A stretch of DNA of 64,000 bases from an uncultured Bacteroidales bacterium. Lineage in GTDB: Bacteria > Bacteroidota > Bacteroidia > Bacteroidales > UBA3824. The notes beneath the pieces are model-generated. The model did not search any database and had not been told where the DNA came from. It was given only the letters and a program-made list of their open reading frames with translations. Location of the stretch: positions 18,320-82,319 of the forward strand of contig CALFIU010000100.1 in NCBI GenBank assembly GCA_937877455.1. The letters are read 5' to 3'. Numbering within the stretch: position 1 is the stretch's first letter; the number at the start of each line of letters is the position of its first letter. Below are positions 21,865 through 47,300 of the stretch, piece by piece. Both the position numbers and the translations under genes were made by a program.

Positions 21865-23643
21865 TTAATGGGTTGCATCCCACTTATCCCACTTCGACTT
21901 TGCCTTTCCTGTTGTTGGGTCAATCTCATTGCCGTTTTCATCCCAAGACTTCCCAGACTTGTTCTTTCTACCGCGTGCCGTTGCTACGCTACCTTTTGTG
22001 CGTTTCCTTGCCCGACCTTTCGTTGTGGTTTTATTACCATTTTCGTCGGTAGAAGTGGAAGTCGTTGTTTCCTGTGTGTAGTCGGCTTCGATTTCCGCAA
22101 GAGCCTCAGCCTGTCTGATGGAGATTTCCGACTGGATTTCAAGTTTCTGCTCTGTAAGTAGCAGTTCATGTTCTTGTTCAGCCTTCTTTTCAGCCTGTAT
22201 GCGCTCCCATTCTTGTGGTGTGCTGTACGGCAGTTTCTCTGATGCTGTCTGCTTTGAGAGGAAGCCACCCACAACTGCTGTGTTGAGGTTTGTGGTCAGC
22301 TCAGTAATGTTGAGGTGGATATACGGCTCAATGTAGTGTCGAATGTTTGTGTTGAGGAACGCCAGACGGTTTTCGCTTTCAATACCATATCCCCAAGTAA
22401 AAATGTCAATCATCTTGTCAACACAGCCGTCGTATTCCTGTGCGTCGGTCATAGCCTTCTCGTATGCGTCGGAATACATGATTTTGAGTGAAACACCAGG
22501 CGTATCGCCAGACTTCAGTTCTGGTGTCTTCACTGCGAATGACTGCTTGTAGATGTTGTCTTCGAGTTTGTCAAGTTCTGCCTTGTATGCGTTGCTTGCA
22601 TCCTGACGGTTGAGGAAACCGATTTCTCCGTCTGAAGGCAGTAGCATGATCTTGGAGGCATAGGACATATCCTTTGTAGTCACTTCCTCACTTCCCTCAC
22701 CTTTGACATACATGATAGGAAGGCCGAAGTCGTGGTTGCTGTGTGCGAGGTTAGAGAAAGCAATCTCATAGTTTTCGATTGTCTCTTCAGAGAACGTCCA
22801 GCACGGTCCGTTTTCGTCTCGCATGTATGCAACGGGTATCGTGTCGAAGCCGTGTGGCTCCATCCATTCCAGTTTGTAGCCGTCGGTTGAGAAAAGTTTG
22901 AAGATAAGTTGTTTTGCTTTCTCCAATAAGTTTTTCGGGTCGCCATCAGCCACGAAACGATAGTAGTAGGTATCATCCCATACGTCAATGTATCGTTTTG
23001 TTACACTTCCGTCTTCCGAGTAGTTGCAATACGTTCTTGCGAATGTACTGAGTTTTCCTGTGCGCAAATCGTAGTGCGGGAATAGTTTGTCACCATTGAG
23101 GAAAGACAAAACTTTCCAGCCAAACTCACCTTTGTCAAGGAATCCGACGAAAGCACCGTCACCTGTTGCTTTGACAGACTTTGCCAGTTGATACCATGCA
23201 ACCTCCATGTTTTTGTTCGCCCATCCATTTCTGAACTCATTGAACACTTCGGTAGTTTCTTCCGTCACGCTCTTGTCAGAAAGTTCAAACTGAATGTCGT
23301 TGCCGCAAAGATGTGTGAGGTGTTTAACGAGAATGATTTGTTGGAACGAGAAAGCGTAACGAGGAATCTCCTGAATATACCACTTCCCATCTTCCTCATT
23401 CTGTTGCCAAACATCTGGGAACAGTTCTTTGTCGTTGATCAGATGCCCCGCAGGGTCAAGTTCACGCAAGAAGTCTTCTTGTGTAACAATCTTCCTGTGC
23501 AGGGAGTCGTGTGTGATAGGAACTTCCGAAACATTGTTCCAGATGTAACCATGATCATAGTGACCATCGGGTAAGACGCGAGTAAAAGGCTTCTTTGTAA
23601 GAATGTCTCTTAACTGCTGTGTTTGTGTGAACTTTTCAGCCAT
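21865..23643 (-). CDS. portal protein
   Basis: 592 aa. It sits between TerL and the MuF-family gene, which is the SPP1-like order. K/R-rich C-terminal tail. The call rests on synteny and size; no motif was verified. Confidence 0.7.
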   Translation of the reverse strand: MAEKFTQTQQLRDILTKKPFTRVLPDGHYDHGYIWNNVSEVPITHDSLHRKIVTQEDFLRELDPAGHLINDKELFPDVWQQNEEDGKWYIQEIPRYAFSFQQIILVKHLTHLCGNDIQFELSDKSVTEETTEVFNEFRNGWANKNMEVAWYQLAKSVKATGDGAFVGFLDKGEFGWKVLSFLNGDKLFPHYDLRTGKLSTFARTYCNYSEDGSVTKRYIDVWDDTYYYRFVADGDPKNLLEKAKQLIFKLFSTDGYKLEWMEPHGFDTIPVAYMRDENGPCWTFSEETIENYEIAFSNLAHSNHDFGLPIMYVKGEGSEEVTTKDMSYASKIMLLPSDGEIGFLNRQDASNAYKAELDKLEDNIYKQSFAVKTPELKSGDTPGVSLKIMYSDAYEKAMTDAQEYDGCVDKMIDIFTWGYGIESENRLAFLNTNIRHYIEPYIHLNITELTTNLNTAVVGGFLSKQTASEKLPYSTPQEWERIQAEKKAEQEHELLLTEQKLEIQSEISIRQAEALAEIEADYTQETTTSTSTDENGNKTTTKGRARKRTKGSVATARGRKNKSGKSWDENGNEIDPTTGKAKSKWDKWDATH

Positions 23644-23660: not shown

Positions 23661-26411
23661 TTATTGTCTTGGTGATAGTTTTCTGATAGTTCTTATGCGG
23701 CTTCTGCCACCTTTGTTTTGTAGCCATTTCGGAACGACCGCCTGTGTATGCTTTATGTCGAATATCTCTCGCATGAAGAGAGCCTCAAAGAAGTCAGGTG
23801 AATGTCCTACGACCGCCTTGTTTTTCATTTGCTCTTTGTGGATAAGACACCAACCCTTATCTTCTTTCGACATGTCCTGTTTTACGCATTTGCGTTCAAT
23901 CTGAAGAATGTCGTAAAGAGTTTTTGTTTCCTTTCCGATTTTGTATTTTCTGCGAAGAAGAGTTGGCTCAATGCTCCATCCCTCTTGCTGCGTTCTTTCT
24001 GCAAACTTATACGCGCACTGCGATTTCTTGTTATCGTACAGGTATTTGTCTTTCAAGTCAACCGCCTCTTGGTTGTTGAACTTGACAGCACTTGGAAACG
24101 CGCCTTTCAAAACCTGCCCCATACCATTCAAGTCATAAGCGAAATTCTGTTCCAAAACTCCCCATTCCTGTAGTTTTGCTTTCAGTAGGTTCACGGTAGT
24201 AAACGGGTCTCGGCGACAGACATAGACATCGGCTACATGGTGTCCTATCCAGAACCATGTCACACAGTTGTCACCACCATCACCTGCCACGTCGCAAGTT
24301 GCGCGTCGAACTTTGTCGCCCACCATCTGCGCGTTCTGAAAGATTTTGTCGAGGTGATGTGCCTGAATCATATCGTCGCCCATCTTTATGATATCCCAGT
24401 TTCCGTCAAACTCCCTTGCTCGGATTTCTGGCGGCTGGTTCAGCAGCGATGCTATATACCCCGGGTCGTTCTTCAGCAGAGCCTTGTTGTCTTTCAAACT
24501 TGCTTTGATGAAAGTTACCGACTTCACGAAGAAAGAAGTCTTTGTGTAGCCGTATTGTTCCCAATCGGGGTCCCAGGCATCATCAATGAGGTCTTTGCAT
24601 TGTTCGTAAACTTCTTCTGGAGTGTCACCCCAAATAATGTTGTCAACAGAATCGTCCGGCATATAGCAGTACCGAACAACTCCGTCACGTTCTGGAATCG
24701 CAAAACCTTTTCTTTCTGGGTGAGTTTTTCCGTCTGAATACACGGTGTCAACTTTTCCAATCCACCAATCCACAAACTTTCTCAACCATGAAAGCGGGTC
24801 TGGGTTGCAAGTTCCGAGAATGCGCGAATGCACTCCGACCGTGTTTCGGTTTGAAGTCATAAGGAACTTGAACATTTCAAACGGCATTTGCGGCAGCTCG
24901 TCGATACCGATGTACGCAAACTGTTGACCACGAAACTTTGTGTCGAAGTCAGACATTGGCATGTCGTAGATGGTAAGACCAAGTTTTGCACCCGTCTTGA
25001 AGTTCCAAGTCATATCATCTTTCGACTTGTTGTAGCGGCCAAGGTGGTTGAACCAGCGTTTACTTTCGTTGATGATATTCTCGAAATCGTCTTTGTTTTT
25101 TCGGAAGATTATGCCATTGAAATGTTTGTTGCGAATGTCGTACATCGGCTCCATGAGCATCGTCACGGTGTTGTGGTTGATGGTGTAGCCGTCGGTCATA
25201 TACAGATGGTCTCTGCCCGTGACGGTAATGCAACGGCAGTTCTGCTTTGTCTTTCCTTTCTTGATATAAAGAAGTTTCTTTGTCAATATATTCCTTTCTG
25301 AAGGAGTTGTAGGAGTCTTTGCGTTGACGTGCGCCCGTGACTTGAAATTAGTTCTTGCAAACAATTCTCCATCGTCAGGTGCGACAAACGAAACTTTCCA
25401 ATATCCTATCTTTGCAGGATCATCGTCAATCTGTGAAACTCTCGCCCAAATTCCGAGTGAGCGTGCTACTTCTGCAATATCTTCAATCAGCAGTTTATTT
25501 GGCAAGGCAAGGTACGGGTGTTTGTGCATAGAACGTCCGTTCTTGAACATGACACCACGCAGATACTCCCACCTTGCGGCTACCGATGCAGTCTTGTATT
25601 CAGGTGGAATCCTTGCAGGTTGTCTTGAACGGCTTGTAGTAATCTTTCTGCGGTTCTCATCCGTCAGTCCTCTCAGATACCAATTCCCGTCACGTCTGCT
25701 TGTTCTGACTTTGTAGCCCATTGCGCGAAACTTGTTACACAGGAAGTAATCGCTTTCAAGAGCGACACCCACTTTGTCGAAGTGCCAGAATCCAGTTCCA
25801 CTGATATAACCGAGGATGAACGGATGCAATGGCAGGTCAATAGCCGTCTTTTTCTCATTCAGTTCTACTTCGCCGCAAAGAGGAATCTCAACAAAGTCTG
25901 TCTTTCCTCTACGCAGAGAAAGCGGGTAAGGTCTGTCTATGGCATAATTATCCATGATTTCCCTTGCAGTCATTTCATGGAAGTCTTCACTGCTATTCGT
26001 CCGCGCCCAGAACCTATGATTATCCATGCAGGTTATGCTTGTTCCATCGTCGAAGTGGAAGATATAAACTGTGTTTTCCCCTTGCTCGAAGATGTTGCTC
26101 ACTTTCTGCACCCCATTATACGGCGTACAGATGAGGTCTCCGACTTCGAGATCCCCCATCTTTCTGAATCCAGACGGCGTAGCAACAGGTGTAGCATAGG
26201 TGTTTGCTTTGCCACCGCCTCTGTTGCCTCCAAAAACGATGATGTCAGCCACACAGCTCAGTCCAAACTCCTGTGCGCCTTTTTGAGCGATGAAGAAGTT
26301 AGACTCCTTTTTGCTACTCTCTCTGGCTCGCAGTTGTTCGATATATCTGTGTGAATAGATGGGCTTTCCATCTTTCGTATGTAGTCCAGTTAAACCGTTC
26401 TGTTCGCTCAT
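23661..26411 (-). CDS. terL: terminase large subunit interrupted by an intein in the Walker A loop
   Basis: Start trimmed to MSEQNG (ATG 26409-26411). The P-loop FGGNRGGGK is separated by 346 aa from TVTMLMEP. Downstream lies Walker B FAYIGIDELP and a long nuclease-half-sized C-terminus. The spliced product would read GNRGGGKT. Confidence 0.85.
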   Translation of the reverse strand: MSEQNGLTGLHTKDGKPIYSHRYIEQLRARESSKKESNFFIAQKGAQEFGLSCVADIIVFGGNRGGGKANTYATPVATPSGFRKMGDLEVGDLICTPYNGVQKVSNIFEQGENTVYIFHFDDGTSITCMDNHRFWARTNSSEDFHEMTAREIMDNYAIDRPYPLSLRRGKTDFVEIPLCGEVELNEKKTAIDLPLHPFILGYISGTGFWHFDKVGVALESDYFLCNKFRAMGYKVRTSRRDGNWYLRGLTDENRRKITTSRSRQPARIPPEYKTASVAARWEYLRGVMFKNGRSMHKHPYLALPNKLLIEDIAEVARSLGIWARVSQIDDDPAKIGYWKVSFVAPDDGELFARTNFKSRAHVNAKTPTTPSERNILTKKLLYIKKGKTKQNCRCITVTGRDHLYMTDGYTINHNTVTMLMEPMYDIRNKHFNGIIFRKNKDDFENIINESKRWFNHLGRYNKSKDDMTWNFKTGAKLGLTIYDMPMSDFDTKFRGQQFAYIGIDELPQMPFEMFKFLMTSNRNTVGVHSRILGTCNPDPLSWLRKFVDWWIGKVDTVYSDGKTHPERKGFAIPERDGVVRYCYMPDDSVDNIIWGDTPEEVYEQCKDLIDDAWDPDWEQYGYTKTSFFVKSVTFIKASLKDNKALLKNDPGYIASLLNQPPEIRAREFDGNWDIIKMGDDMIQAHHLDKIFQNAQMVGDKVRRATCDVAGDGGDNCVTWFWIGHHVADVYVCRRDPFTTVNLLKAKLQEWGVLEQNFAYDLNGMGQVLKGAFPSAVKFNNQEAVDLKDKYLYDNKKSQCAYKFAERTQQEGWSIEPTLLRRKYKIGKETKTLYDILQIERKCVKQDMSKEDKGWCLIHKEQMKNKAVVGHSPDFFEALFMREIFDIKHTQAVVPKWLQNKGGRSRIRTIRKLSPRQ
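25170..26207 (-). mobile_element. 346-aa intein with a LAGLIDADG-type homing endonuclease remnant
   Basis: Hint N-part VATPSGFRKMGDLEVGDLI...SITCMDNHRFW. LAGLIDADG-like PFILGYISGTGFW and WEYLRGVMFKNGRS. C-terminal CRCITVTGRDHLYMTDGYTINHN followed by a +1 Thr. Confidence 0.8.
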
Positions 26412-26526
26412 AAAATATTTACATTTTTGGCACAAAGGTAGTTCGCAAACGACTCTATAACATCTTTTTTGCTTGGAAAACAAAACATTTCCAAAATAAA
26501 ATATCTTTACAAGTTTGTTCTCAGTA

Positions 26527-26534
26527 TAATTTTG
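26527..26534 (+). promoter_or_regulatory. Bacteroidota-type -7 promoter box (TAnnTTTG) upstream of the head operon
   Basis: TAATTTTG lies 71 nt upstream of the ATG at 26605, in the TerL/scaffold divergent intergenic region. Confidence 0.35.
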
Positions 26535-26604
26535 CGGAAAAATCATTACAGGCACAGACAAAAAAGGTCTGTTCAACCAACACAAAAACTAAACATTTTA
26601 CGAC

Positions 26605-28338: not shown

Positions 28339-29502
28339 ATGAGAGACATGAATCTTTATGGTATCAGCGGTCTGCATCAGTATGTGGACGCTGAGAACTT
28401 CGGTCTGATCCTCGACAACGTGAACGCCAAGTACAACCGTGCAATCTGGCGTCAGTTTGCTTCGTGGGGAGAGCCGACCGACGATCGTGAATGGAAGCAG
28501 GGTATCAAGAAGACCCCGATTCTGGTACGTGCCAGCGTGCTTGGTACGCATTCCGGCAAGCCGCAGCGCAGCACAATGGGCTGGGAGTTCTACGGTGGAA
28601 CACTGCCGCAGGTAGGTCACGGCTTCAACATCACCAAGGATGATATGATTGAGTTGCGTAAGGCTGCAAAGCTCCGCAACGTTACCTTTGGCGAGGCTCT
28701 GACAGACAGCTTCATCTACAACTCCGATGCCATGCTGGGTGGTGTTCACAACGAACTTTCCTACATGGTTATGCAAGCCATGTCAACAGGCGAAATCCAC
28801 GACGTAGCCGTTGACGGTGCTCGTTACGACTTCAAGTTCCAGATTCCCGACGAGAACTTCCTTGCACCCGAAAGCGGCAAGGAATGGTACATTTGGGACA
28901 CCACTGGTGCTACCCCTGTGCTGAAAGCCAATACCAATGCCGATGTCGTAGAGGACATCCTGACCTTCCAGAAGTATCTTACCGATACTCTCAACCTTGG
29001 TGTTGACCACTGGAAGTTGTCGAAGGATTTGCTGGATAAGATTGTCCTGCATCCCTCTGTTGTGACCGCATTCAAGGCAAGCAAGAACTACTACAACCCC
29101 TCACAGGTCAAGGTGGTTCGCACCGATGTTCTTGACTGGTTGCACAACGACATGAAGGTATGGCCGTTCCAGGAGATTGACTTCAAGTCGCGTCACGAGG
29201 AAGACGGCAAGCCCGTTGCCGATGCACCCGCATTCGACATTCACAACATGGTTGCCGCAAGCCGCGCATATCGCCCCTTCGAAATGAAGTGCATGAACAG
29301 CATTCTCATCGACCGTGTGAAGATGGGTGGTCTTGACCCCTCTACCCGCTACTCATTCGTTGAGGGTCGTATTGCCGTGCGCAACTCATGGCAGGAAGAC
29401 CCCATCCTGAATGTCATTGACTGCGAACTCTACGCTGGTCCCGTGTTCAACAACGTTCACGACTACGGTATTGCAACCGTATGGAAGGACTACGAGGGTT
29501 AA
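28339..29502 (+). CDS. major capsid protein
   Basis: 387 aa. The position between the scaffold-like gene and the head-tail connector-sized genes is typical. No motif was verified. Confidence 0.6.
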   Translation: MRDMNLYGISGLHQYVDAENFGLILDNVNAKYNRAIWRQFASWGEPTDDREWKQGIKKTPILVRASVLGTHSGKPQRSTMGWEFYGGTLPQVGHGFNITKDDMIELRKAAKLRNVTFGEALTDSFIYNSDAMLGGVHNELSYMVMQAMSTGEIHDVAVDGARYDFKFQIPDENFLAPESGKEWYIWDTTGATPVLKANTNADVVEDILTFQKYLTDTLNLGVDHWKLSKDLLDKIVLHPSVVTAFKASKNYYNPSQVKVVRTDVLDWLHNDMKVWPFQEIDFKSRHEEDGKPVADAPAFDIHNMVAASRAYRPFEMKCMNSILIDRVKMGGLDPSTRYSFVEGRIAVRNSWQEDPILNVIDCELYAGPVFNNVHDYGIATVWKDYEG

Positions 29503-32997: not shown

Positions 32998-33049
32998 AAT
33001 TACGGCATAAAGAACGAAACAGACAACACAACACAAACACTAAATAGTT

Positions 33050-36000
33050 ATGGCATTAGATCCGTTGAAATTCCAAGTTGCCATCCAAGACGATGCAACT
33101 GGTCAATTAAGCAAGATAGAGCAAGAGTTTGAAAAGCTCAAAGACAAGACCATCAATGTCAAGGTCGAGGGTCTTCAAGACTTGCAAAATCTTTTGTCGG
33201 CGTTACAGCACAAGCAGGTTGAAACTCTTGGAAAAGATGTTGCTGCTGGCATCCATGACGCGGCAAAAGGTTTGCAGGAAGAAGCACAGAAAGCCGTCCG
33301 TGCGTCGCTTGGTCAGTTGGCACAAGACCTTGTTGCAGTCAAGACAGCCATTCAGCACGACAACTTTACCGCCTTCAGTACGCGCATTGAAAAGTGTGCG
33401 CAAGCCGTGAACACACTCGATGCCGCCTTCAAGCAGTTCCATGTCACCATTGGCAGTGATGCTGGCATGAGAAACTTTATGACTGGCTTGGGTGAGGTGA
33501 TACGGAATGTGCGGACAACAATGGGTCAGTTGAACGGCTTTGGTCAGGAGAAATCTACTCCAGAAAGTATCTATGTGCGCAACGTTCAGAAAATGCAAGA
33601 CGCCCTTTACCGCATACAGGAAGCCCGGGCAAAAGTCGGTGTAGCCATCAAGAACGGTGAGGATGTCGGTTTCAACACCAACGGCATGAAGATTTACCTG
33701 CAACTCTTGGACTCTTACGAGAAAAAGTTACAGGCTATCAAGAGCAATCCTTTGATGATGCACGAAAACGGTTGGCAGCGAGAGGCTTTCGGAACAACTT
33801 TCAAGCACCTACTTTCCAATGCCGGAGATTTCCAGAGACAAGTTGACGGCTTTGTTCAGAAACAGAACACTCTTGAAGCCAACCAGCGTCGTTTCAATGT
33901 TGCACTTGAAGAAAGCGAGAAACTTTTGAAGCGTCTTGATGGAGCCAGCACCAAAGGTTTCTCCCTTGGCGTAGATACGTCAAAGACAGAAAGGGCACTG
34001 AATGATATTCAGCAGTTCATTGACAAACTTCTGATGTTTGACAGCAAGAACCTTGGAAACAATCATGCCGTCAATGAGCTCATTGCAGAATACACCCGTC
34101 TCAAATCTTCTTTGTCTGGAGTAGCGCGTGAGCAGGAGAAACTTAATGCCACAACAGAGAAATCCAACCAGAAAGCCGTTGACAACGCCACCAAACAGGC
34201 AAAGAAAGACAACGAACAATGGGCTGAAAGTATGCGTCGTGCAGGTGTCGAAGCCACGAAACTTGAAATCCAGATACGGAAACTGCAAGATGCAGAGAAC
34301 AGAGGAAAACTTGCACATGTTGACACGACCAATCTTTCAGCGAGGATAGCCGAACTGCAAAGTTACGTCACCATTCTACGTTCTATCGAGAGCGGTTCCA
34401 AGTTGCATGGTCACACCAGCGACTTTATCAATAGCGTTCCTGTTCAAAACTCTATCCGCTTGGCTAATGAGGAAGCCAGTGCTGTAAGACAGGCTACAGC
34501 AGAGAAAGAAAAGGCAGCGAGGGCTTCGCAACAACTTTCAGCAGAGGAACAACGGCTTGCACAGGCATTGAACCAAACAACGGAAAGTGCCAAAGGTCAG
34601 TCGCAGGTGTTGAGCGACTTGAAGTCGATGGCTACGCAGTATCTTGGAGTATGGGGCGGTCAGCAGTTCCTCCACAATATCATTGAGATTGGTGGTCAGT
34701 TGGAAATGCAGAGACTTTCCATCGGTGCTATTCTTCAGAATACGGCACAGGCAAACGAACTCTTTGATAAAATCAAAGGTCTGGCTTTGCAATCGCCCTT
34801 TGGTGTTGTACAACTCGACCAAATGACCAAGCAACTCACGGCTTACGGTTTCAAGTATAACGAATTGTATGACATGACCAAACGACTTGCAGACATATCC
34901 GCTGCGACGGGTACTGATGTGAGCCGTCTTGCATTGGCATTGGGTCACGTCAGAAGTGAGGCGGCATTGTCCGGCTACACCTTGCGACAATTCTCCATGG
35001 CCAACGTCCCGCTGTTGCAGAAGTTGTCGGAGAAACTTGGTAAGACCACCAAGGAAATCCGCGAAATGGTCAAGAAGAAAGAAGTTGGCTATGATGATGT
35101 GATTGGTGTACTGAAGGACTTGACCAACGAGGGCGGCATGTTCTACAATATGCAGGAAGTAATATCAGAAAGTGTCAAGGCGAAGTTCAAGAACGTCAAA
35201 GACGCAATGAATATTATGTACGGCGAAATGGCGGAGGGCGCACCTGGCGAAGCATTGAAAGAAGTTGCAAACGTCTTGATGGAGCTGACGCAAAACTGGA
35301 AAGATGTTGCTACTGTCATGGGAACTGTAGCGGCTTTGTGGGGTGTCAACAGGGCTGCTACATTGATATATACAAAAGTATTGGGAACAGCCAATGCGAC
35401 TACTCTTTCTTCCATTGCCGCATTCAGGGCAAAGGAAGCGGAACAACTGCGTTCTGCATCCCTGTATCGAACCCTTACGTCGGCAGAGAAAAGTCAGATT
35501 GCCACTTCTAAACTATTGACTACGCAAGAGCGTATCAGGATGGCTTTGCATATTCCATTGACTGCCAACCAGCGGTTGCGTATTCAGCAGGCAAGGCAGC
35601 AGCATGTCATGGATTTGGCTCTTGCATTGTCAGAAAAGAAACTCACAGCAGAGGATATAGCGAGACAGGTTGCGCTTGGAAAAATCACAAACGCAGAAGC
35701 CGCACAGATTATTGCGCTTTCAGACTTGACCAATGCACAGAAGTTGGCTGCACTTGAAGCCGTCAATAACACAAGGGTATTAGGATTCTGGGGTAAGGCG
35801 GGTTATGCCGCTGCATTAGGTATCAGAGCACTTGGAACTGCATTGAAGTCACTTATCTTCAATCCTGCAATGCTTGCGATGGCTGGTATAACAGCCGTCA
35901 TGGAGTTGTGGCAGAGGAACAAACAAGAACTGGAACGTGCTGGCGAGATTGCTGACAGCATTCGTGAGCGTTCCAATTCCGCGATGCAAGCAACAAAGGC

Positions 36001-39000
36001 AGTCATGCAAAGTTCGCAGATGGAGTTTGAAGACGCTAATGGTAACAAAGTTTCTCCAAGTCAACTTGACTTCCAGAGTATAGCCAACATCAAAGCCTCT
36101 TTGAAAGTTGAATTTAACAAAGAAGACGCTCAACAACAAATAGACGAATGGCTGGACTATATTCGTCAGTATTCTGCAACTCCGAATGAAACAATCAACA
36201 ATGCACTCTTTGACGGCGACAAGATGCGAGAAATTGAAGACCAATGGAAACGAGTTGCAGCGGCTATGGGTGAAGTCGTATTAGCCAAATATGGCTTGCA
36301 TGATGTTGGCGATATGTTTGAGAATGCGACCAATGCCACTAATGGCGGTTGGTTCAATGATGATGTTGTAGAGAACATCAACGACTACGAAAAAGCCGTC
36401 AAGAACTACAATAAAGCCTTTGCTGATATGTATAGGGAGCATGGTCGTGGTGTTGATAAGATTGTCAAGGCTGTTGAGAAATCCGATTCTGCTTTTGCTA
36501 CCGCTGTTAGCGGGATGAATACTTACGGGGAAAAGTTCAAGTTTCTTATTGAGAATATGAAGGACTTTTCTGGAGCGTATAGCACGGCCCGGGCGGCTGT
36601 TCAATATGATGGAGATAATAAAATATACGATTTCCTTTACGATTCCCAATACGGGAACTTCAGCGAAAAAGCCGATAAGAATTGGGCTAAATCCAATATG
36701 GATGAAGACTTAGAAGTTTTCTTTACCCATATCGAAGCTGAACTGAACAACAAAGGTCAAAAGATTGGTCAGCTTACACAAGCGCAACAACAAGACCTAT
36801 TGCTTGGATTTACAGACTTCCTCAGCAAAACAAAGGTTACGACGAAAGAAACTCTTGACTACCTTAAACAGCGTTTTGCCGAAAGATTCCAACTTCAATT
36901 AGACGCAAAAGATGAAAAATTCCAAGTGAAAGTTAATGAAGTCTTACGTATTCTCAAAGAACTTTCAGAAAGTGATTGGAATGTTGACATTAACTTCGCG
37001 TCAAACGTGAACGATGTCATTGCGGAAGCGAGGAAACAGTACAAGGCTGCAAAAGAGTTTTTCGAGAACGCAGAGCCTGTACTTGTAAAGTTTGGCATTG
37101 ACATGAAGATGGGCGACGTCCTGACTGAAGAGCAAATACAGGATGCGCTTGCGAAAGCCCCAGAAAATGCAAGGGGTTTCTTGGAGCAAGTTCTACGGGG
37201 AGCAAACGAAGCATCAAGATTATTCAACCAAGCAACAACGGCAAGCAACAACGGCGGTTTCTCTCTTGAAGACAAGAAAAAGGGTAATGGCTCCAGCACA
37301 AAGTCTTACAAGGATGAGTTTGCGAAACGTTGGGATGAACGTATTCGCATTATGAAGGAAGCCTACTCATGGTATGACAAATGGGAAAAGAAAGTTGGCA
37401 ATGATGAAGCCATTGCCGAGACAAATGCGAAGTACGCAGACATCTTCAATGAGTGGCGCACCGACAAACTTTTGCCGATGGACTTTGACGTGAATGAAAT
37501 TGCCGACTACACCAAGTATGTAGAGAAGATTCGTGACGATGCCCTCAAACGCTATCAGGCACAGAAGAATGACAAGGGCAAGAACAACGGACAGGCGTCG
37601 TTGCGTGTATATCGTCAAGCCGTTGCGTTGCTGAATGACGTGAAGTTTGACGGATTCACCAGGGCCGCAGAAGAGTTCAAGAGTATCATTGACCAGACGA
37701 TTACCGACCTCAACGAGCGTTGGGAAATGTTCAATACGGTACGCAGTGCCACTGGCAATGTGGCATTGGCATCGAGGGTTGCAGGTTTCGGAACGTCCGA
37801 AGAAGGCGCGAGAACATCTGCCGACGCTATGCGCAATGAGTTGTTAAGCCAGTTGCGCAGTGCTGGTGGTGAAGACCTTATAGGTCGGATACCACTTGAC
37901 ATACATCTTGACGAAGAGGGCTTGCGGTCGAAGTTGGAGTCTGCAATTCCCCAAACCGACAATGCTGAAAAGTATAAGGAGAAGATAGACGGACTGATTA
38001 AGGCTTATCAGGAATGGCAGAAGTTACAACGGAAAGTTGTTAAGGATGATATATCTGTTTTTGCTAATCTGATTGGTGCTGTTGTCTCATACGACGCAAA
38101 GATAGAAAAGATGAAAGACGAACTTCAGCAGAAGAAAGATAGCACCAATGCCCTTTTGTCTGCTGGCACTATCACGCAAGAAGACGCAGACAGAGCAAAT
38201 CAGATAGCACAGGCTCAGTTTGATTGGGAAAGTATGAAGATGAGCGCAGACTATGCCAACATCTACAACCATGCCGTAGCCATGTCGAGGGAAGAGTTTA
38301 ACAAAGCCGCAGATGCCATAGAGAATATGCTGGAAGAGTTGCGTCGCCTTGAACTCATATCTCCAGACGATTTCGTTTCAGAGAAAGGAAAGTTGGATAA
38401 GGCTCGCAATGAGTGGAGCACGACGGGATTCCTTGGTGAGCGTGGTGCAGTCGGTCAGTTTATCAGTGGTGGCTACGACGGACTGATGAACTACTATGCA
38501 CAGCGCAGGGATGCAGCATTACAGAAAGAGAAAAATGCAAAGCCAGGCAGTGACGAACAAAAGAAGTATCAAGAAGAAGCCGACCACTACGGCAAACTTT
38601 TCCAGAAGATGTCGAAACTTTCGGATTCGGCAAAGAACTTGATAACTGCATTCAACACATTGCAGAGCGGGCTTGACCTCGTTTCCAATATGTTCGATTC
38701 CTTGGGAATGGAGGGAGCCGCTAACGCCGCTGGTGATGCCGCTGGCGTTCTTGGCGGTGCTATGCAAGGAGCATCTGCTTTGAGCGCACTCGGTCCGTGG
38801 GGTATGGCTGCTGGTGCTGGACTTGGACTAATCAGCGGTCTGGCGCAAGTCCTTGACAAGGCACTTGAACGTCAGATTGAGAAACTGCGTGAAGACGTGC
38901 AGAAGATTGAGGCAAACACAAAACTCATCCAACAAGCCAGAGAGAGAACTTTGGGCTTTGACCAGGGCGACTTGCGCAGGAGTTACGCACAGGACTATGC

Positions 39001-40006
39001 GCCGGACGAGAAACTAAAGAAATTGCTTTCAAATACATTTTTAAGAAATACATATTTGGGTCAAGGATTCAGTTCCAAGGCTCAGAAGGACATGTACGAG
39101 TATTACAGCCAGAACTCATCGGGTACAGGGTATCAGCAGGAGTACCAGAACCTTCTTGACCAGCGGAAAGACTACATGGATATTCTTGAAAAGCAAGAGT
39201 CAAAGAAGAAAAAGTCGCAGTCCGACATCGAAGAGACGAAGGCAAAGATAGCCGAACTTGACGACCAGATACGCTATTTCACTCAAGACTTGGCAAAAGA
39301 ACTTTTTGACATCGACATAAAGGGTTGGGCAGATCAACTTTCAGATGCTCTTGCCTCTGCTTTTGAGAATGGCGAAAGTATGGCGAAAGCCTACAAGGAA
39401 ACCGTGACAAGCATCTTGCAGCAGGTAATGAACAAGATGATGCAGTTGTCCATTCTCGAACCGATGTTCCAGAGTTTGCAAGACAAGCTCTTTGGCAATG
39501 CCGAAAAGAATATCTCTGGAGTCTTCGACCCCAACGACCCGAAGGGCAGCATGAGTAAGGTGACAGCCATGATAACCGACTTCTTTGGCAAGGGCGGAGA
39601 AGGTGAGAAAACTATCACAGCCGCAACCGAGTTTATGACTGCTTTCCAGAGAGGTCTTGAAAACGCAGGACTTTCGGTTTTGAATGAGTCTGCCAACGCA
39701 CTGACAAGCAGCGTACAGGGAACGAGCGAGGAAACTTCAGACCTTCTTGCTGGGTATATCAATGCACTCCGGCAAGATGTGGCGGTGAACAGAATTTTGC
39801 TGACGCAGTTCGTCACACAACTTTGGCCAGAGTACGTTGAGTCCTTTGCCAATCATGTCAGGACAGTTGCCAATATAGACGTAAACGTTCAGTTGATGAT
39901 GGAAATGATGCGCGATGGTGGAGGTGCTTTCTTCGCAGAACTTTCGGCTATGCGGTCAAGGCTCGACAATGTTGTTGACGGCATTGAAAGTTTGTCTGTG
40001 AGGTAA
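33050..40006 (+). CDS. tail tape measure protein (2318 aa)
   Basis: Position after the chaperone pair, long helical low-complexity sequence, and a TMP-core-like segment (LQSPFGVVQLDQMTKQLTAYGF, GTDVSRLALALGHV). Confidence 0.85.
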   Translation: MALDPLKFQVAIQDDATGQLSKIEQEFEKLKDKTINVKVEGLQDLQNLLSALQHKQVETLGKDVAAGIHDAAKGLQEEAQKAVRASLGQLAQDLVAVKTAIQHDNFTAFSTRIEKCAQAVNTLDAAFKQFHVTIGSDAGMRNFMTGLGEVIRNVRTTMGQLNGFGQEKSTPESIYVRNVQKMQDALYRIQEARAKVGVAIKNGEDVGFNTNGMKIYLQLLDSYEKKLQAIKSNPLMMHENGWQREAFGTTFKHLLSNAGDFQRQVDGFVQKQNTLEANQRRFNVALEESEKLLKRLDGASTKGFSLGVDTSKTERALNDIQQFIDKLLMFDSKNLGNNHAVNELIAEYTRLKSSLSGVAREQEKLNATTEKSNQKAVDNATKQAKKDNEQWAESMRRAGVEATKLEIQIRKLQDAENRGKLAHVDTTNLSARIAELQSYVTILRSIESGSKLHGHTSDFINSVPVQNSIRLANEEASAVRQATAEKEKAARASQQLSAEEQRLAQALNQTTESAKGQSQVLSDLKSMATQYLGVWGGQQFLHNIIEIGGQLEMQRLSIGAILQNTAQANELFDKIKGLALQSPFGVVQLDQMTKQLTAYGFKYNELYDMTKRLADISAATGTDVSRLALALGHVRSEAALSGYTLRQFSMANVPLLQKLSEKLGKTTKEIREMVKKKEVGYDDVIGVLKDLTNEGGMFYNMQEVISESVKAKFKNVKDAMNIMYGEMAEGAPGEALKEVANVLMELTQNWKDVATVMGTVAALWGVNRAATLIYTKVLGTANATTLSSIAAFRAKEAEQLRSASLYRTLTSAEKSQIATSKLLTTQERIRMALHIPLTANQRLRIQQARQQHVMDLALALSEKKLTAEDIARQVALGKITNAEAAQIIALSDLTNAQKLAALEAVNNTRVLGFWGKAGYAAALGIRALGTALKSLIFNPAMLAMAGITAVMELWQRNKQELERAGEIADSIRERSNSAMQATKAVMQSSQMEFEDANGNKVSPSQLDFQSIANIKASLKVEFNKEDAQQQIDEWLDYIRQYSATPNETINNALFDGDKMREIEDQWKRVAAAMGEVVLAKYGLHDVGDMFENATNATNGGWFNDDVVENINDYEKAVKNYNKAFADMYREHGRGVDKIVKAVEKSDSAFATAVSGMNTYGEKFKFLIENMKDFSGAYSTARAAVQYDGDNKIYDFLYDSQYGNFSEKADKNWAKSNMDEDLEVFFTHIEAELNNKGQKIGQLTQAQQQDLLLGFTDFLSKTKVTTKETLDYLKQRFAERFQLQLDAKDEKFQVKVNEVLRILKELSESDWNVDINFASNVNDVIAEARKQYKAAKEFFENAEPVLVKFGIDMKMGDVLTEEQIQDALAKAPENARGFLEQVLRGANEASRLFNQATTASNNGGFSLEDKKKGNGSSTKSYKDEFAKRWDERIRIMKEAYSWYDKWEKKVGNDEAIAETNAKYADIFNEWRTDKLLPMDFDVNEIADYTKYVEKIRDDALKRYQAQKNDKGKNNGQASLRVYRQAVALLNDVKFDGFTRAAEEFKSIIDQTITDLNERWEMFNTVRSATGNVALASRVAGFGTSEEGARTSADAMRNELLSQLRSAGGEDLIGRIPLDIHLDEEGLRSKLESAIPQTDNAEKYKEKIDGLIKAYQEWQKLQRKVVKDDISVFANLIGAVVSYDAKIEKMKDELQQKKDSTNALLSAGTITQEDADRANQIAQAQFDWESMKMSADYANIYNHAVAMSREEFNKAADAIENMLEELRRLELISPDDFVSEKGKLDKARNEWSTTGFLGERGAVGQFISGGYDGLMNYYAQRRDAALQKEKNAKPGSDEQKKYQEEADHYGKLFQKMSKLSDSAKNLITAFNTLQSGLDLVSNMFDSLGMEGAANAAGDAAGVLGGAMQGASALSALGPWGMAAGAGLGLISGLAQVLDKALERQIEKLREDVQKIEANTKLIQQARERTLGFDQGDLRRSYAQDYAPDEKLKKLLSNTFLRNTYLGQGFSSKAQKDMYEYYSQNSSGTGYQQEYQNLLDQRKDYMDILEKQESKKKKSQSDIEETKAKIAELDDQIRYFTQDLAKELFDIDIKGWADQLSDALASAFENGESMAKAYKETVTSILQQVMNKMMQLSILEPMFQSLQDKLFGNAEKNISGVFDPNDPKGSMSKVTAMITDFFGKGGEGEKTITAATEFMTAFQRGLENAGLSVLNESANALTSSVQGTSEETSDLLAGYINALRQDVAVNRILLTQFVTQLWPEYVESFANHVRTVANIDVNVQLMMEMMRDGGGAFFAELSAMRSRLDNVVDGIESLSVR

Positions 40007-40818: not shown

Positions 40819-41373
40819 ATGGTCACATACAACACATACGTTCAACAGATAAGTTTCGACGGCACGACCTACACAAAAGGTAGCGTTGTTGACATGCTTT
40901 CCAAGTTCAAAATAGTCAGTCAGGAGTTTCCTTTTAGGAAGAATCCGAAACCCAAAGATTTGCCTACGCGAGATTGGGCTGGTGAAGACGGTCTTGATGT
41001 CTATATCCCCGGCCAACTTCCTGTCAAGCACTATGACATGGAAGTTTCTTTCCTTTATGTAGGCACGGAGGCAAACATTCGTACCGACCTCAACAACTTC
41101 ATTGATTTCCTCTATGGCAGGGTGAAGGGCAATAACTCTGACACCGTACAGAGCGGTCGCCTTGCAATCTATAATGAACTTACGGGCATTGGACGCAAGG
41201 ACATTGTTGTTGCAGAGGTGGAAAATGAAATCTTCTACCTCACAGACAGCGACACCGATGCCGTAGCGAAATTCAAAATCAAGTTCACGGTGTATGATCC
41301 TACAACAGAGGTAACTCCCACCTACGGAACATACGACGGTCAACAACGTTGCACAGCACTAAACTTTGAATAA
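40819..41373 (+). CDS. distal tail protein (Dit-like)
   Basis: Track ORF 40516-41373 trimmed to MVTYNTYVQQISFDG. The longer form would overlap the antisense gene. Position between TMP and Tal. Confidence 0.55.
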   Translation: MVTYNTYVQQISFDGTTYTKGSVVDMLSKFKIVSQEFPFRKNPKPKDLPTRDWAGEDGLDVYIPGQLPVKHYDMEVSFLYVGTEANIRTDLNNFIDFLYGRVKGNNSDTVQSGRLAIYNELTGIGRKDIVVAEVENEIFYLTDSDTDAVAKFKIKFTVYDPTTEVTPTYGTYDGQQRCTALNFE

Positions 41374-41375
41374 CT

Positions 41376-44300
41376 ATGGAAAGGGTAGAGTTAAATATAT
41401 ATTATCGTGATGGCAACGAAACGAAATTGCGTTGCACTGTGAACAAATGGAAATTCCAGGACACGATGATGGGCGAACAGTTCATCACGCTCAATATCAC
41501 GTCCGAGGTTCCCATTGACTTTGCCGTAGGTGATTTCTGCACCTTCAGAGGTGAGACCTTTACGTTGAATTATGTGCCGAGTGTCACACAGAAAGCACGG
41601 ACGAATGAGAGGCAGGACTCTTACACCTACGAGAATGTGAAGTTTGAGTCATTCCAAGAAGAGTTGACGCGATGCCTTATGCTCGACATCACTCCGACAA
41701 CAGGCGACTATGTTGCGGCATTGGGTACGAACTACACTGGCAGTAGCAAGTTTCAGTTGTTCTGTGGTGAGACATCAGCCAACGGCAGTACGCTTACGGC
41801 AGTGTGCGCATTGGCAGCAAAGATGCAAGCCAACCTCGACCGTATGTTTCCGACGAATGGCTGGAAGATATTTGTTGACACAACATCCACCTACCTCAAC
41901 AGTGCTGGCAATGCCGTACTTGTGACGCATACGGAAGACAAAGTATTGACGTTTGACAATACTACCGTTGCTCAGGCTCTCACAGAGGTTCATAACACCT
42001 TTGACCTCGACTATTGCATCAGGGGGCGCAGTATCTACATCGGCTACAACTTAAAGAACCTGACGAGCGACAACGACAATGAGACCTTTGCCTTCGGTTA
42101 CGGCAAGGGCTATCCTACCCGTGATAGCCAGAACAAGGCATTGTTCCAGATCAAGCGCATTGCCAACTCACAGCAAAAGGTCGTTACCCGTCTGCGTGCT
42201 TTGGGTTCTACCAAGAACATGCCATATCGGTACTATAACAGCAAGTATAATCTTTCGCAGTCGCTATTCCCAACCAACCTGCAACTTCCAGACACCTTTG
42301 CATCGCCCGCGACGAAGGCCGCAAACAATGCTTTGCGTGACAATACTCTACGAGCCGTCAAGGGCGATACCAACGACGCATACATTGACAAGAACGACGA
42401 TGCCGAACATTGCGCTGAAGGCATAAGGGAAGACAGCGCACGATGGGATGGCACGAATAGCGATTTGCCAGAAATCTATCCCACCATCGAAGAAGCCACC
42501 TACGGCGAGTTGCGTAGTGCATTGGTTCAAGACCAAGACGGGAACACTGGTCAAAGCTCGTTCCCGAACTATGGCAGTTCCGAGCGCATTGACAAGATGC
42601 TTGCTATTGGCTATAAGGATGGCAATACTTTGGTTGACGATGCCAACAAAGGTGACGGCATACTGCCAGAGAGCGGCATTTCTTCAAGGGGCATACCAAG
42701 AAGTGCAGACATCGGACTGACAAGCCTCAGTTACAACACCCGTAATTACGGTGATTTCAGTAGTCGTGGCGGTGTGTATGCCGGACCCGAAAAGACGCTG
42801 TTCACCATACAAGGTGTTTCTGCTGGAAAGTATGCGATGGCTCCAACCATCGGTGCAGTGCTGTATGGTTTCAGCATATCGTGTTATCGTGACGGTGTGA
42901 GTGCAGACGTAGGCTATATCATCACCATCAAGCAGAAGAATTTGCAGACAGGGGCAACGACGACAATTGCCACCTACACCTCCGACTACCAAAGTATCTC
43001 GCGTGGCGATGGCATCTTGGAAATGGAACTGCCAGAAATTCCAGATGTCAAGAACGGTGCAAACGCTAAAGTTTCAGAAGTAAGAGTTACGGCATTGTCA
43101 GACATCACCGTAACTTTCACGCCTGTCATGCGTAATATCAACGTTCCAAGCGGTTTCACGGATAATTTCTCGCTTTCTTACAAAGTTGGAAACTCCCGTC
43201 TTGATCATACCGTTACCTACGACCCAGAGTATAACTGGATTCCGTTGGACGATACAGACAGCGTGTCAGAAACATTCCATGTCTTCATTCAGGACATGGG
43301 ATTTGACCTTCAAGCCTGTTGGACTGGCGAGACTCCTGTTGTCGCCATGAAGAGCGGACGCTGTGTAGGCAGAGAGTTTGAGATTGGCGAGAACATTGAG
43401 AAAGTCACTCACAACGGGAAGAAAGGCTACATGCTCACGTTGAAAAGAGCAACCGACAATACTCTCAACACATATTATCCGAGTGCCACCGACCCGATTG
43501 CGGCAGGAGATTACTTTGTCCTTTTGAACATCAGTATGCCCGATGTCTATGTGAAGATGGCAGAGGTCAGACTTCTACGAGCCGCCACCGAGTATCTGGC
43601 AGACAATTGTGAAACTCAGTTCACCTACCAGCCGAGTATCGACGATATATATTTGCAGCGCAACTATGACAACATGGTTAAGGCTGGAACGCCACAAAGC
43701 AGCATCTTCTGGCGTTTATACGCAGGACTGAAGTTTACGTTCAGAGGTATTCCGGCGAGCGAAGACAGCCCAGCACCTTTGGCAGACATCACCATTGAGC
43801 AGGTGACGATCAGCATGGGTGAAGGTCTGACACCGAAAGTTGAGTTGAAACTAAACGACGATGTGCAGCAGAGTACCATCCAGAAACTCACGACGAGCGT
43901 TGACAGGATTTACAACGGAAGCATCTTCAGCAGCGGTAGCGGCAGTGGTGCAAGTGGTGGTGCAATGTCAGCAGCACTGTTAAGCATCTTGCAGAGCGAG
44001 GGAGAAAAACTTTTCCTCTCGAAGAAACATGACGATGTAGCAGAGGGAAAGATAACATTCAATGATGTCGTTACCCACAACGAAACTTTGAAAGCAAAGA
44101 AAGGTCTGAAAGTCGGAAACTTCAACTCCAGACTATTAGGTAGCGGTGCTTTGATTGACGAAGAAGGAAACGCAGAGTTTGAGAGCATTTACAGCCGCAA
44201 CTTCATTTCCACTCCAGAGTTTCGCTTCAATAGGATTGCAGTTACCGATGGTGAACAATGGTGTACCAATGGCTATGGAACCATCAAAGAAGTTGAGATT

Positions 44301-47300
44301 ATTGACGAAACCACTGGCTACATCACTCTGAAACTTGAAGAAAACGACTATGCAAGTATTGCTGAAGGTGATATTTGCCGAGGTATCTACAATGACATCG
44401 CCCATGAATACGAGACAGCAAGTCTTGACGATGATACAAGTCTCTATGCAGGTGAGAACGAAAGCAATATAGAGGGATTTGGTTTCAGTTCAAAAGAAGG
44501 TTTCTTTACGTCGTACTTCTGGGTTCGCCAGATGATTACCAACCAAAAGGGCGAGTGCAAGTTCCTCTATGAGTTGCGCAACACCAACACGCCTCATCCG
44601 TGCGAGTTTATGAAGTTTGCGCAATACGGCTCTTTCACAAACTCCGAGCGCAGAAGTTCATCGTATGCTACGAGCATCGGACACTATTATGAAATGGTGC
44701 TGGACGGTGTTTCGACATGGAAGATAAAGTCTGCCAATGTCGTTTACCGCAAGGGCTATCTTGGCAACATGACCGTCACTTTGAGGAACGGACATGAAGC
44801 AGAGTTGCAAGGCTATGGTTTATATGTTCAGGACAATGTATATTTCGGCAATGCCGTCGTACAGCTTGACCCCGAAACCATTGCCGACCTACAGGATGCG
44901 CTCAACTCATATACCGTAGATTTCTCTGGCTATGTCGATGTTATCACGGTGGATGATGTCGGCAATGTGATTGGCGGTCTCTATGCCATCAGTGGGGAAT
45001 CCCCTAACGAATACCGCAGTTACCGCATACATTCTGCAATCACTGTAAGAAAGAGCGGTGAACTGTTGACCATTGCCGCAGACAATGCCGATGCAGGAAA
45101 TGGCACATATAAAATCTATGCACAGGCTCATGGTTGCAGTTTCGTTATCGAAAACTCCACCATCTACATCACAGGCATTGACAATATAAAGGATGGCGTG
45201 GCTGGTAGTGCCGACGATGCCAACTTCGACTTCGCTGCTATGCGGGCCATGGATAGTTGCAGCGTTGACATTATCATTGACTGCGAGGGTAAGGGAAGTA
45301 TCATCAAGAACTTCCCGATCACCATCAAGCATGATGCACAGCCATTCGTAGGCGCAGACATCAGCAATGAGTTTAGTTCCGTGTCCTGGAACACGAAGAC
45401 CCAGCAGTATATTGGACTGCCAATCGTATTCGACATGAAGATGTGGCACAACAACGAGCCGTTGGATATAGCAAGCGTAAACGATATTTCTGTTGCTCCA
45501 TCCATAACAGGAATGACCGTCAACAAGAGTATTGTTACGAATGCCAATGGTACAAAAGTTGCGAGAATCAGCATCACATCACTACCGTCAGACCTTTCTC
45601 TTGTTACGGATCTTAATGTGACGTGTGTCGCAACCTATTCTGGTGTTCAGTATGAGCGGACATTGGTACATACCATCAACAAAACGACAGATACGAATGT
45701 GTATCAGTTGCTACCTTCGGTCAGTGAGGTTGGCGTTGTGTATAACGACAACAAGCAGAAGGTAGTGAACACCAACAAGGTCTATTGCACCGTTCGCTGT
45801 GACTCCACCGACGATAAGCACTACACAGTTGCTACATCGGACTATCCGACACACGGGCTTTTCATAACGAGCCAGACCTTTACACTCAATGCAAGTAACG
45901 TAGAGGTCGGTGGCACAGAGACCGCATATAGTTCTTTGAATGGCGTGACGGTCAGCAACGACCTTACCCGTATTAGGTTCAAACTCTACAAATTGAGAGA
46001 CACCACATTGGCAACACTTGAGGCGTTGCTTGCTGCAAGTAATGTCATTGAGGTTCTTGATACAGAAGACGTGCCTGTTATCTTGGATGGATTGGATGGC
46101 GACAACAGCATCTTTGTCAGTCTTGACAATCAGAATGATGCCGTGATGTGTATTGAAGACGGAACCGTTATCGCCAGCACTTTGCCGACCGCAAAGGCAA
46201 GGCTCATGGACGGCGAAGACACCGTAGGCAGGAGCGTATTGGGTACGACCTTGGCCGCAAACAAACAGACACTTGGTAATTGGTCGTTGGTTTGTCACGG
46301 CTGTACGGCAGAATTTGTTGGATGGGTTGCGGATTCAGACTCAAACGATTGGGTTCAGATACGGGTGACAGGCGTTACAGACGATGTGGCGAGTGTTGAC
46401 GTAAACTGCGAGTACACCAAGCATGGAGTGGCAGGCAACTACGTGAGCATATTGAGCGTGAAGAAAATTTACGGTTTGGATAAGTATGAACTTACATTCA
46501 ATCCACCAATTGTTTCTTACAATCCCAACACCGATACCTATACCCCAGAATCATTCATGGTGTATGTGTGGAAGACCACCCAAGATGAAGACCGCCACCT
46601 TATGACCTCACTGCCCGGGAATACCGCAAATGCGGTTAGTGAGACAGACGGATCTATACGTCTTCAGTATTCCGTAAACAAAGGTGTCTCGTGGACTACG
46701 CTGTATGGCTACGCAAGTGGTAAGAGTATAGGAAAGACATTGTTTGACATTGACGGCGTTGAGTCTGTTGATTTCCGCATTCAGAAGTACGTTGCAGGAG
46801 AGAGCGGTGGCGAGTGGGTATTGCTCGACGAGGAGGGAGTGGAGATTGTCGGTGATGGTGAGAATACCGTGCAACTGACTATTGACAATGGCAATGACAC
46901 CGTAATGTGCATAGAGGACGGAACGGTGATAGCCAGCACTCTCCCAATCGCCCAAGTCTATCTGTACGATGGCAATGACTTAATGAACAGCGACCTTGCT
47001 GCGTCTGCATGGCAGGCATTGGAATGTGTCGGCTGTACGGCAGAATGGGTCAGCGGCTATCAGTCAGATGGTGGCAAGCGATTCCGTGTCACAGCAGTAA
47101 CAGCCGATGTTGCAAAGGTAACGGCGAAAGTCAGTTACAAGGGCAATCTCTATTCCGTTGTTCACAACATCAAGAAGTTGTACGGTCTTGACAAGTACGA
47201 GATTATTACAGACCCCGTTTCGATTGCCTACAATCCGAACACAGGCACACACACACCGAGTTCGTTCAATGTCTATGTCTATCTGACAACACAGGAAGAA

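Follow-up and report, generated by a model that had tools for sequence, protein, structure and literature searches.

Results

The terminase gene and its insert

The 64,000-nucleotide stretch of DNA analysed here (the window; contig CALFIU010000100.1 of an uncultured Bacteroidales bacterium) encodes a precursor of the phage terminase TerL that is interrupted by an insert of 346 residues with the features of an intein. The precursor gene, recognized from the translation of its open reading frame (ORF), a Pfam Terminase_6N match and its homologues, occupies 23661..26411 on the minus strand, like all features of the gene described below, and comprises 916 codons and a stop codon. The N-extein (residues 1-68; 26208..26411) ends in the first half of the Walker A motif, GGNRGGGK. 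The insert follows at 25170..26207 (precursor residues 69-414) and runs from Ala1 to His345-Asn346. The C-extein (502 residues; 23664..25169), which matches PHROG terminase families, begins with a Thr (Thr+1; 25167-25169) that completes the Walker A motif, and contains, besides the nuclease domain, the remaining part of the ATPase domain. The longest ORF begins at a TTG codon at 26585, but homologues and an independent gene call on an ENA contig (916 residues) favour the ATG at 26411.

Ahead of the insert the precursor reads IIVFGGNRGGGK (in a longer view of the junction, ADIIVFGGNRGGGK). The insert starts with ANTYATPVATPSGF and closes with DGYTINHN, and the precursor then continues with TVTMLMEP (TVTMLMEPMYDIRNKHF in the longer view). 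The insert falls between the Lys and the Thr of the Walker A motif, a position described as the 'classic' P-loop site of intein insertion (PMC5050341). Excision in silico gives GNRGGGKT, and the predicted peptide across the spliced junction is GGGK-TVTMLMEPMYDIR. Read on the raw bases, the codons are gca for Ala1 (26205-26207), tgc for Cys326 (25230-25232), aac for Asn346 (25170-25172) and acc for Thr+1 (25167-25169); those of Cys324, Asn344 and His345 were confirmed in the same way.

The closest annotated relative, the TerL of the Bacteroides phage LoVEphage, is intein-less and has an uninterrupted ADITICGGCRGGSKTFTLLMETLKDIKNKNF at the site. The spliced TerL aligns with LoVEphage TerL (GGCRGGSKTFTLLME) at 48% identity (538 aa), without a gap at the junction. 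Excision also raised the Terminase_6N match from 47 bits for the precursor to 59 bits for the spliced protein, a gain of 12 bits, and moved its start from profile position 11 to position 2, so that the match spans the rebuilt P-loop. The original prediction, made from the DNA letters of the window, had placed an intein at exactly 25170-26207 and proposed that its removal restores GNRGGGKT. The raw codons and the gap-free alignment to the intein-less protein confirm the first claim to the base, and the LoVEphage alignment together with the Terminase_6N gain bears out the second. Since alignment to intein-less TerL sets the junctions at K/A and N/T, other boundaries are ruled out, including any that would provide a canonical Cys1.

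Conservation was assessed by counting the residues at each position among the 120 best TerL homologues (exteins 72-98% identical), which are the relatives referred to below. The N-extein residues G-G-N-R-G-G-G-K are kept in 112-119 of 119 of them.

Fold and database matches of the insert

An AlphaFold2 model of the insert, built with 87 family sequences, has a mean pLDDT (predicted local distance difference test score) of 92.1 and a pTM (predicted template modelling score) of 0.91. Used as a Foldseek query against the PDB, it matched along its full length the endonuclease-containing inteins TliVMA, PI-SceI, PhoVMA and PI-PfuI (E = 1e-13 to 1e-9). The HINT part matched mini-inteins, including the class 3 inteins MsmDnaBi1 and MchDnaB1, and the middle domain matched I-DmoI as well as the PI-SceI fold. 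In a PDB search by sequence, the best matches were gp41-1 (E = 5e-7), MsmDnaBi1 (6BS8) and MchDnaB1, the first of which is a class 1 and not a class 3 intein. Sequence and fold matches thus both include 6BS8 and 6RIX. As modelled, the insert is a real intein of HINT plus LAGLIDADG build.

A tblastn search with the insert against 50,697 phage records gave full-length matches of about 25-28% identity in 424 records. The matches sit within helicase, terminase, PhoH, RNA polymerase and other genes. Near-identical DNA was not found in the phage collection. Within the 64-kb window, a profile of this intein group detected no other intein, and neither a second TerL nor a further intein-like ORF was found. 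In two database proteins (P0006 and P0007), the N-terminal portion of the intein is joined to sequence unrelated to it, in the case of P0007 an HD-domain protein; these are probably assembly chimeras or frameshifts.

Residues for splicing

The N-terminal half of the HINT domain (intein residues 1-111; 25875..26207) carries blocks A and B, and the C-terminal half (residues 301-346; 25170..25307) carries blocks F and G. Block A, assigned with the help of the conservation counts, is Ala1-Asn2 (26202-26207), and block B covers residues 55-69 (26001-26045; G..CMDNH64-R-F66-W67). Block F (25194-25241) reads C324-R-C326-I-T-V...H334, with CRCITV at residues 324-329, and block G (25170-25190) reads Y-T-I-N344-H345-N346.

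Residue 1 is Ala in 119 of 119 relatives, leaving no Cys, Ser or Thr nucleophile at this position. Cys326, His334, Asn344, His345, Asn346, Phe66 and Thr+1 are invariant (120/120), and Asn2 and His64 (B:10) are likewise without variation. Cys326 (codon 25230..25232) lies at position F:4, where C-I-T-V of the window intein corresponds to D-L-t-V, and aligns with the corresponding Cys of canonical class 3 inteins; it is the proposed first nucleophile and branch point. The nearby Cys324 is an unlikely nucleophile, being present in 116 of the 120 relatives and replaced by Phe in the other four, whereas Cys326 is constant.

Class 3 splicing begins when the Cys at F:4 attacks the N-terminal junction and takes up the N-extein as a thioester branch; the N-extein is then transferred to the +1 residue (PMC2807308; PMC4031507; PMC5222942), which is typically Ser or Thr and rarely Cys (PMC5222942). 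Judged from the sequence, the combination of Ala1, Cys at F:4 and Thr+1 is the class 3 arrangement. The original prediction had pointed to the same elements, namely Ala at residue 1, a class 3-like Cys in block F, and a terminal HN followed by Thr+1, and all of them hold throughout the relatives.

Class 3 inteins are a rare type and reportedly form a monophyletic lineage. We inspected nine of the phage-record tblastn matches of highest coverage, and all nine are canonical class 3 inteins, with Ala1 after the P-loop Lys, H-x-W, x-C-I-x-V, V-T-H-N, and intact GDG and DTDG motifs. They lie in helicase, TerL, PhoH and RNA polymerase genes. The Alice-type helicase intein, one group among the nine, has been classed as class 3 (bioRxiv 10.1101/2025.01.02.630785).

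Five cysteines are kept in 115-120 of the 120 relatives, at intein residues 27, 60, 111, 324 and 326 (codons 26127-26129, 26028-26030, 25875-25877, 25236-25238 and 25230-25232, respectively).

An altered signature triplet

The signature of class 3 inteins is Trp at B:12, Cys at F:4 and Thr at G:5. Block B of the window intein aligns to 19 class 3 inteins without gaps, placing the invariant Phe66 at B:12, and G:5 is the equally invariant Asn344, so that the triplet reads FCN. The original prediction had spoken of non-canonical splice-site chemistry; this stands in so far as the arrangement is that of class 3, and the replacement of two of the three signature residues by Phe66 and Asn344 goes beyond it. 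Trp67, the residue next to Phe66, was rejected as the class 3 Trp, as HMMER paired it with Trp67 of 6BS8 only via a gap that the 19-intein alignment does not need. It occupies B:13 and is variable among the relatives (W 93, L 16, F 6, Y 3, N 2). Phe66 and Asn344 are also shared by a more distant TerL (P0135; 49% C-extein identity), in which B:13 is Thr.

A survey of 1702 class 3 inteins lists the triplets WCT (1685), FCV (7), WCS (3), NCT (3), MCT (1), WCC (1), HCT (1) and FCS (1) (Hoffmann et al. 2020, PMC7891396, Table S1). Phe is found at B:12 in 8 of the 1702 and the residues at G:5 are T, V, S and C, so that FCN, and Asn at G:5 in general, are absent from that set (PMC7891396). The AceL NrdHF split intein (MCT; 6ZGQ) and the rare FCV and FCS variants (Hoffmann et al. 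2020) resemble the window intein in that they are class 3 and work without Trp at B:12, where they have Met or Phe, or without Thr at G:5, which shows that the triplet is not absolute. AceL differs in being split and in lacking both assisting His residues and an endonuclease. Mutation data show a mild effect of changes to Thr G:5 (PMC5222942, PMC7891396).

We conclude that the invariant Phe/Asn pair is a co-adapted working variant of the class 3 site and not a broken one, because both residues are invariant in a family that is obliged to splice. By analogy with the Cys-His-Thr triad of MchDnaB1, Asn344 may substitute for the Thr as hydrogen-bond partner of His64.

The endonuclease domain

Intein residues 112-300 (25308..25874) form a LAGLIDADG domain that is predicted to be catalytically dead. 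In motif 1 (ISGTG; 25788-25823) Thr138, and in motif 2 (FKNG; 25533-25568) Asn223, stands in place of the catalytic Asp, as placed by alignment to the intact GDG/DTDG motifs of canonical class 3 inteins. Position 138 varies among the relatives (T 70, S 18, K 10, D 10, N 7), and so does position 223 (N 52, K 20, S 12, A 8, G 7, C 6). Acids at both catalytic positions were found in none of the 120, so that the canonical endonuclease active site is gone in every member of the family.

The length of the intein is 342-354 residues across the clade, with a mode of 346. The ratio of nonsynonymous to synonymous divergence (omega), calculated from five independent close pairs with a synonymous divergence (dS) of about 0.4-0.5, was 0.038 for the endonuclease domain (95% confidence interval 0.024-0.054), 0.033 for the splicing domain and 0.030 for the C-extein. 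A value of 0.29 obtained for the endonuclease domain from distant pairs was discarded as inflated by near-saturated dS. Faster evolution of the endonuclease domain is seen over longer distances: mean pairwise identity falls from 0.78 in the C-extein through 0.67 in the splicing domain to 0.53 in the endonuclease domain. The endonuclease domain is maintained by purifying selection and is not eroding. The original prediction, which had noted that both LAGLIDADG motifs lack the catalytic acid, was right in this respect. Its term 'decayed' fits the dead active site, but not the domain as a whole, which is intact, modelled with high confidence, conserved in length and under purifying selection as strong as that on TerL.

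For some actinophage inteins, the endonuclease has been reported to be encoded antisense or in a different frame. Two antisense ORFs of the window, at 25324-25716 and 25782-26354, were considered as a hidden gene of this kind and rejected, having no Pfam match and being closed even in a 99%-identical relative. We found no conserved overlapping ORF that would explain the constraint.

Synonymous divergence is very uneven along TerL in close pairs such as L005/L012 and L034/L038, a pattern suggestive of recombination with breakpoints inside the intein or close to it. Values differ, for example, between the N-terminal part of the intein (0.83) and the C-extein (0.15), or between the N-extein (1.2) and the C-extein (0.34).

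Distribution, descent and host

The 120 best TerL homologues are 900-942 residues long, except for two shorter listed proteins (427 and 803 residues). Among 80 IMG/VR loci, the insert was present in every one with a C-extein of at least 60% identity and sufficient upstream sequence; several of these loci are on contigs of about 104-110 kb. On clustering at 50%, the whole intein clade is a single representative. Intein and extein identities are correlated (Spearman 0.80), and the intein was more similar than the extein by >0.03 in only 3 of 7021 pairs. This correlated divergence points to old vertical descent without recent homing.

The LoVEphage-like sister group is polymorphic at the site. 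Locus L069 carries a canonical, apparently active intein (WCT, with intact GDG/DTDG), L070 and L073 have nearly the same exteins and are empty, and L075 has a related intein in more divergent exteins. This looks like ongoing homing in the L069/L070/L073 group. Intein-less alleles, with which the original prediction had proposed a comparison, exist in LoVEphage, L070 and L073. The case that it named as a refutation, relatives with the 346 residues as an integral, non-splicing TerL domain, does not hold, given these alleles and the invariance of the splice-site residues.

Further TerL relatives carry either mini-inteins or inteins inserted two residues upstream. This second P-loop site was seen in P0138-P0142, TerL relatives of 40-50% identity, where GGxRGG is followed by an intein that runs from Pro to THN and then by SKS. 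These inteins have Pro1 and CCCI or CACI in block F; that of P0139 is full-size (369 residues), and those of P0138 (173 residues) and P0142 (139 residues) are minis. The P-loop of this TerL family is an intein hot spot, and the inteins illustrate the known life cycle of invasion, fixation and endonuclease loss in which the clade of the window is at the late, fixed stage.

An 881-residue TerL with an FCN intein is encoded in Prevotella sp. oral taxon 376 F0043, at about 2.00 Mb of a 2.07-Mb scaffold (L085 2303-4948), where it may belong to a prophage or a co-assembled phage. A further copy of the intein-bearing TerL occurs in a metagenome-assembled genome of a red-deer Bacteroidaceae, and one partial homologue is labelled Prevotella corporis. 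The copies in Prevotella and Bacteroidaceae suggest that the phage group infects Prevotella/Bacteroidales. The cultured strain F0043 provides a host clue as well as available test material.

Comparison with known inteins

The insert belongs to an already known kind, the class 3 inteins in the P-loops of phage TerL, which are documented for mycobacteriophages. TerL inteins have been reported in gut crAss-like phages, and class 3 inteins are common in phage TerL (PMC5050341; bioRxiv 10.1101/2025.01.02.630785). The most similar systems are canonical class 3 inteins that occupy the identical TerL site in related Bacteroidales phages, namely Parabacteroides phage PF672P1 (PF672P1_00065), the IMG/VR loci L069 and L075, and the metagenomic proteins P0137, P0149 and P0150. 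They share with the window intein the host protein family, the P-loop Lys/Ser or Lys/Thr site, Ala or Gly at residue 1, CRCI in block F, the terminal HN before Ser/Thr+1, and the combination of HINT and LAGLIDADG domains. They differ in having Trp B:12, Thr G:5 and mostly intact GDG/DTDG motifs, in their patchy presence, and in overall sequence (27-29% identity only).

The prototypes of class 3, the DnaB intein of mycobacteriophage Bethlehem, M. smegmatis DnaBi1 (6BS8) and M. chimaera DnaB1 (6RIX/6RIY), likewise follow the P-loop Lys and have Ala1, His B:10, a Cys branch point at F:4, HN and Ser/Thr+1 (PMC2807308, PMC5222942, PMC7664689). In contrast to the window intein, they carry the WCT triplet and reside in a helicase gene, and two of them (DnaBi1 and MchDnaB1) are mini-inteins. 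A location in a terminase ATPase domain is shared by the TerL1-a/b P-loop inteins of mycobacteriophages and by the class 3 inteins TerL1-c/d/e (Kelley et al. 2016, PMC5050341; Gosselin et al. 2025 preprint). These inteins are found in another TerL family of actinobacteriophages, have a highly conserved WCT and are mostly mobile, with active endonucleases. The best PDB sequence match, gp41-1 (6QAZ), has Phe at B:12 as well, but is a naturally split mini-intein with Cys1, Asp at F:4 and class 1 chemistry.

Neighbouring genes

The portal gene (Pfam SPP1_portal) lies directly downstream of TerL, at 21865-23643. On the other side, a short intergenic stretch (26412-26604), probably a divergent promoter, separates the minus-strand TerL-portal pair from plus-strand genes. 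Among the latter, a 387-residue ORF at 28339-29502 has a weak, sub-threshold match to a major capsid family (Phage_cap_E). Three giant plus-strand ORFs follow in a row downstream of the head genes, at 33044-40003 (2320 residues), 41370-51161 (3264 residues) and 52196-58759 (2188 residues).

Discussion

We put at about 0.8 the probability that the insert, located at the Walker A Lys/Thr position of TerL, is a full-length class 3-lineage intein that has become fixed and is inherited vertically. The boundaries of the insert, its fold, its conservation, its phylogenetic pattern and the selection acting on it are shown by the analysis, whereas the splicing chemistry and the cause of the retention of the endonuclease domain are matters on which we infer.

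The 916-residue precursor should be unable to bind or hydrolyse ATP, because its P-loop is split by 346 residues. TerL function must then need splicing, which supports the claim of the original prediction that packaging would depend on it. In the proposed route, the HINT halves would fold together after translation. The thiol of Cys326 at F:4, aided by His64 at B:10, would then attack the Lys68-Ala1 bond and create an N-extein thioester branch, from which the N-extein would be transferred to the hydroxyl of Thr+1. Cyclization of Asn346, aided by His345 and His334, would release the intein, and an O-to-N shift would give the mature TerL of 570 residues with GNRGGGKT. The endonuclease, lacking its acid pair, would no longer cut DNA, and the intein would no longer home. 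It would persist because only a perfectly precise deletion in the essential P-loop could remove it.

Several observations weigh against the class 3 intein reading. The curated profiles stay below their cut-offs (Pfam Hint_2 18 bits, Intein_splicing 17 and Hom_end 13), and an NCBIfam search with the insert returned no intein model, so that the alignment to intein profiles suggested in the original prediction gives it no formal match; these low scores probably account for the lack of intein annotation in the database records of this family. The assignment of class 3 chemistry is made here from sequence alone. In all 120 relatives, B:12 is Phe and not the expected Trp, and G:5 is Asn and not the expected Thr. 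Replacement of Trp B:12 by Ala blocks splicing in the three class 3 inteins tested (PMC5222942), and the AceL intein, which functions with Met at B:12, does not tolerate aromatic residues there (PMC7891396). The surrounding context must accordingly have co-evolved. Regarding selection, the omega values rest on five pairs and a simple counting method, and at deeper divergence the endonuclease domain evolves about 2-3 times faster than the exteins.

The departure from two of the three signature residues could also favour splicing by a route other than that of class 3. Thr+1, or water or another residue, would attack the Lys68-Ala1 bond directly in a class 2-like manner, and Cys326 would have a supporting role, as Asp F:4 has in classes 1 and 2. 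Ala1 by itself does not distinguish class 2 from class 3 (PMC5222942). However, the known class 2 inteins are all orthologues of KlbA, in which +1 is Cys and G:6 is Ser (PMC4031507), whereas the window intein has Thr+1 and His at G:6, and the attack of a hydroxyl on an unactivated amide is chemically unfavourable. Together with the presence of Cys326 in 120 of 120 relatives and the homology to canonical class 3 inteins, some of them at the same site, this makes such a route very unlikely. That the insert does not splice at all any more, and is either a permanent TerL domain or the mark of a dead terminase gene, we regard as extremely improbable. The sub-threshold scores of the curated models, and the fact that splicing is deduced from sequence, would be compatible with this idea. 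Yet a Walker A motif split by 346 residues is non-functional, while the gene is intact, evolves with an omega of about 0.03 and is present in more than 100 phage genomes; all residues for the splicing steps are invariant, which is not expected of a non-splicing domain, and no second TerL was found in the window.

The strong purifying selection and the conserved length of the LAGLIDADG domain might be explained if the endonuclease were still alive and homing continued with non-canonical catalytic residues or by nicking at a single site. The retention of the motif 1 Asp in ten relatives and the uneven synonymous divergence, with its hint of recombination near the intein, would fit. However, both catalytic positions vary freely, contrary to what is expected of a functional active site, the clade has no empty allele to invade, and pairs with greater similarity in the intein than in the host gene are almost absent. 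The chance that the endonuclease is alive therefore appears slim. For the class 3 intein with a dead endonuclease, we infer that the LAGLIDADG domain is kept most simply since a misfolded insert would stop the splicing of an essential protein.

A less simple explanation, which we consider rather unlikely but not far-fetched, is that the dead LAGLIDADG domain was co-opted for a new job, that splicing of TerL is conditional, or both. The excised 40-kDa intein or the precursor may have a function, such as sequence-specific DNA binding or control of the onset of packaging, because selection on the endonuclease domain is as strong as on TerL although homing is impossible in the clade. Cys326, the proposed nucleophile, lies in a Cys-Arg-Cys motif whose Cys324 is present in 116 of 120 relatives, and together with the three further conserved cysteines it could serve as a switch, responsive to redox state or metal, by which TerL maturation is delayed. 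Redox sensitivity of the catalytic Cys has been shown for one class 3 intein, M. smegmatis DnaBi1 (PMC6195587). If such a switch existed here, it would operate in a phage of a strict anaerobe.

New in the window intein and its family are the invariant FCN triplet, the fixation in a large unannotated phage clade, and an endonuclease domain that is maintained but catalytically dead. More than 100 natural FCN sequences show how the active site of class 3 can be rebuilt, and the family is useful for studies of mechanism and for the engineering of inteins that accept Thr+1. As standard profile libraries miss this intein, virome studies with TerL as their marker gene will assign wrong sizes and alignments to the TerL proteins of these abundant Prevotella/Bacteroidales phages. 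For the biology of the family, the clade is a clean natural case of the late intein life cycle, in which the intein is fixed, the endonuclease dead, and loss blocked by the P-loop position, and the maintained dead domain brings into sharper focus the long-standing question of what retains the endonuclease domain in inteins once they are fixed.

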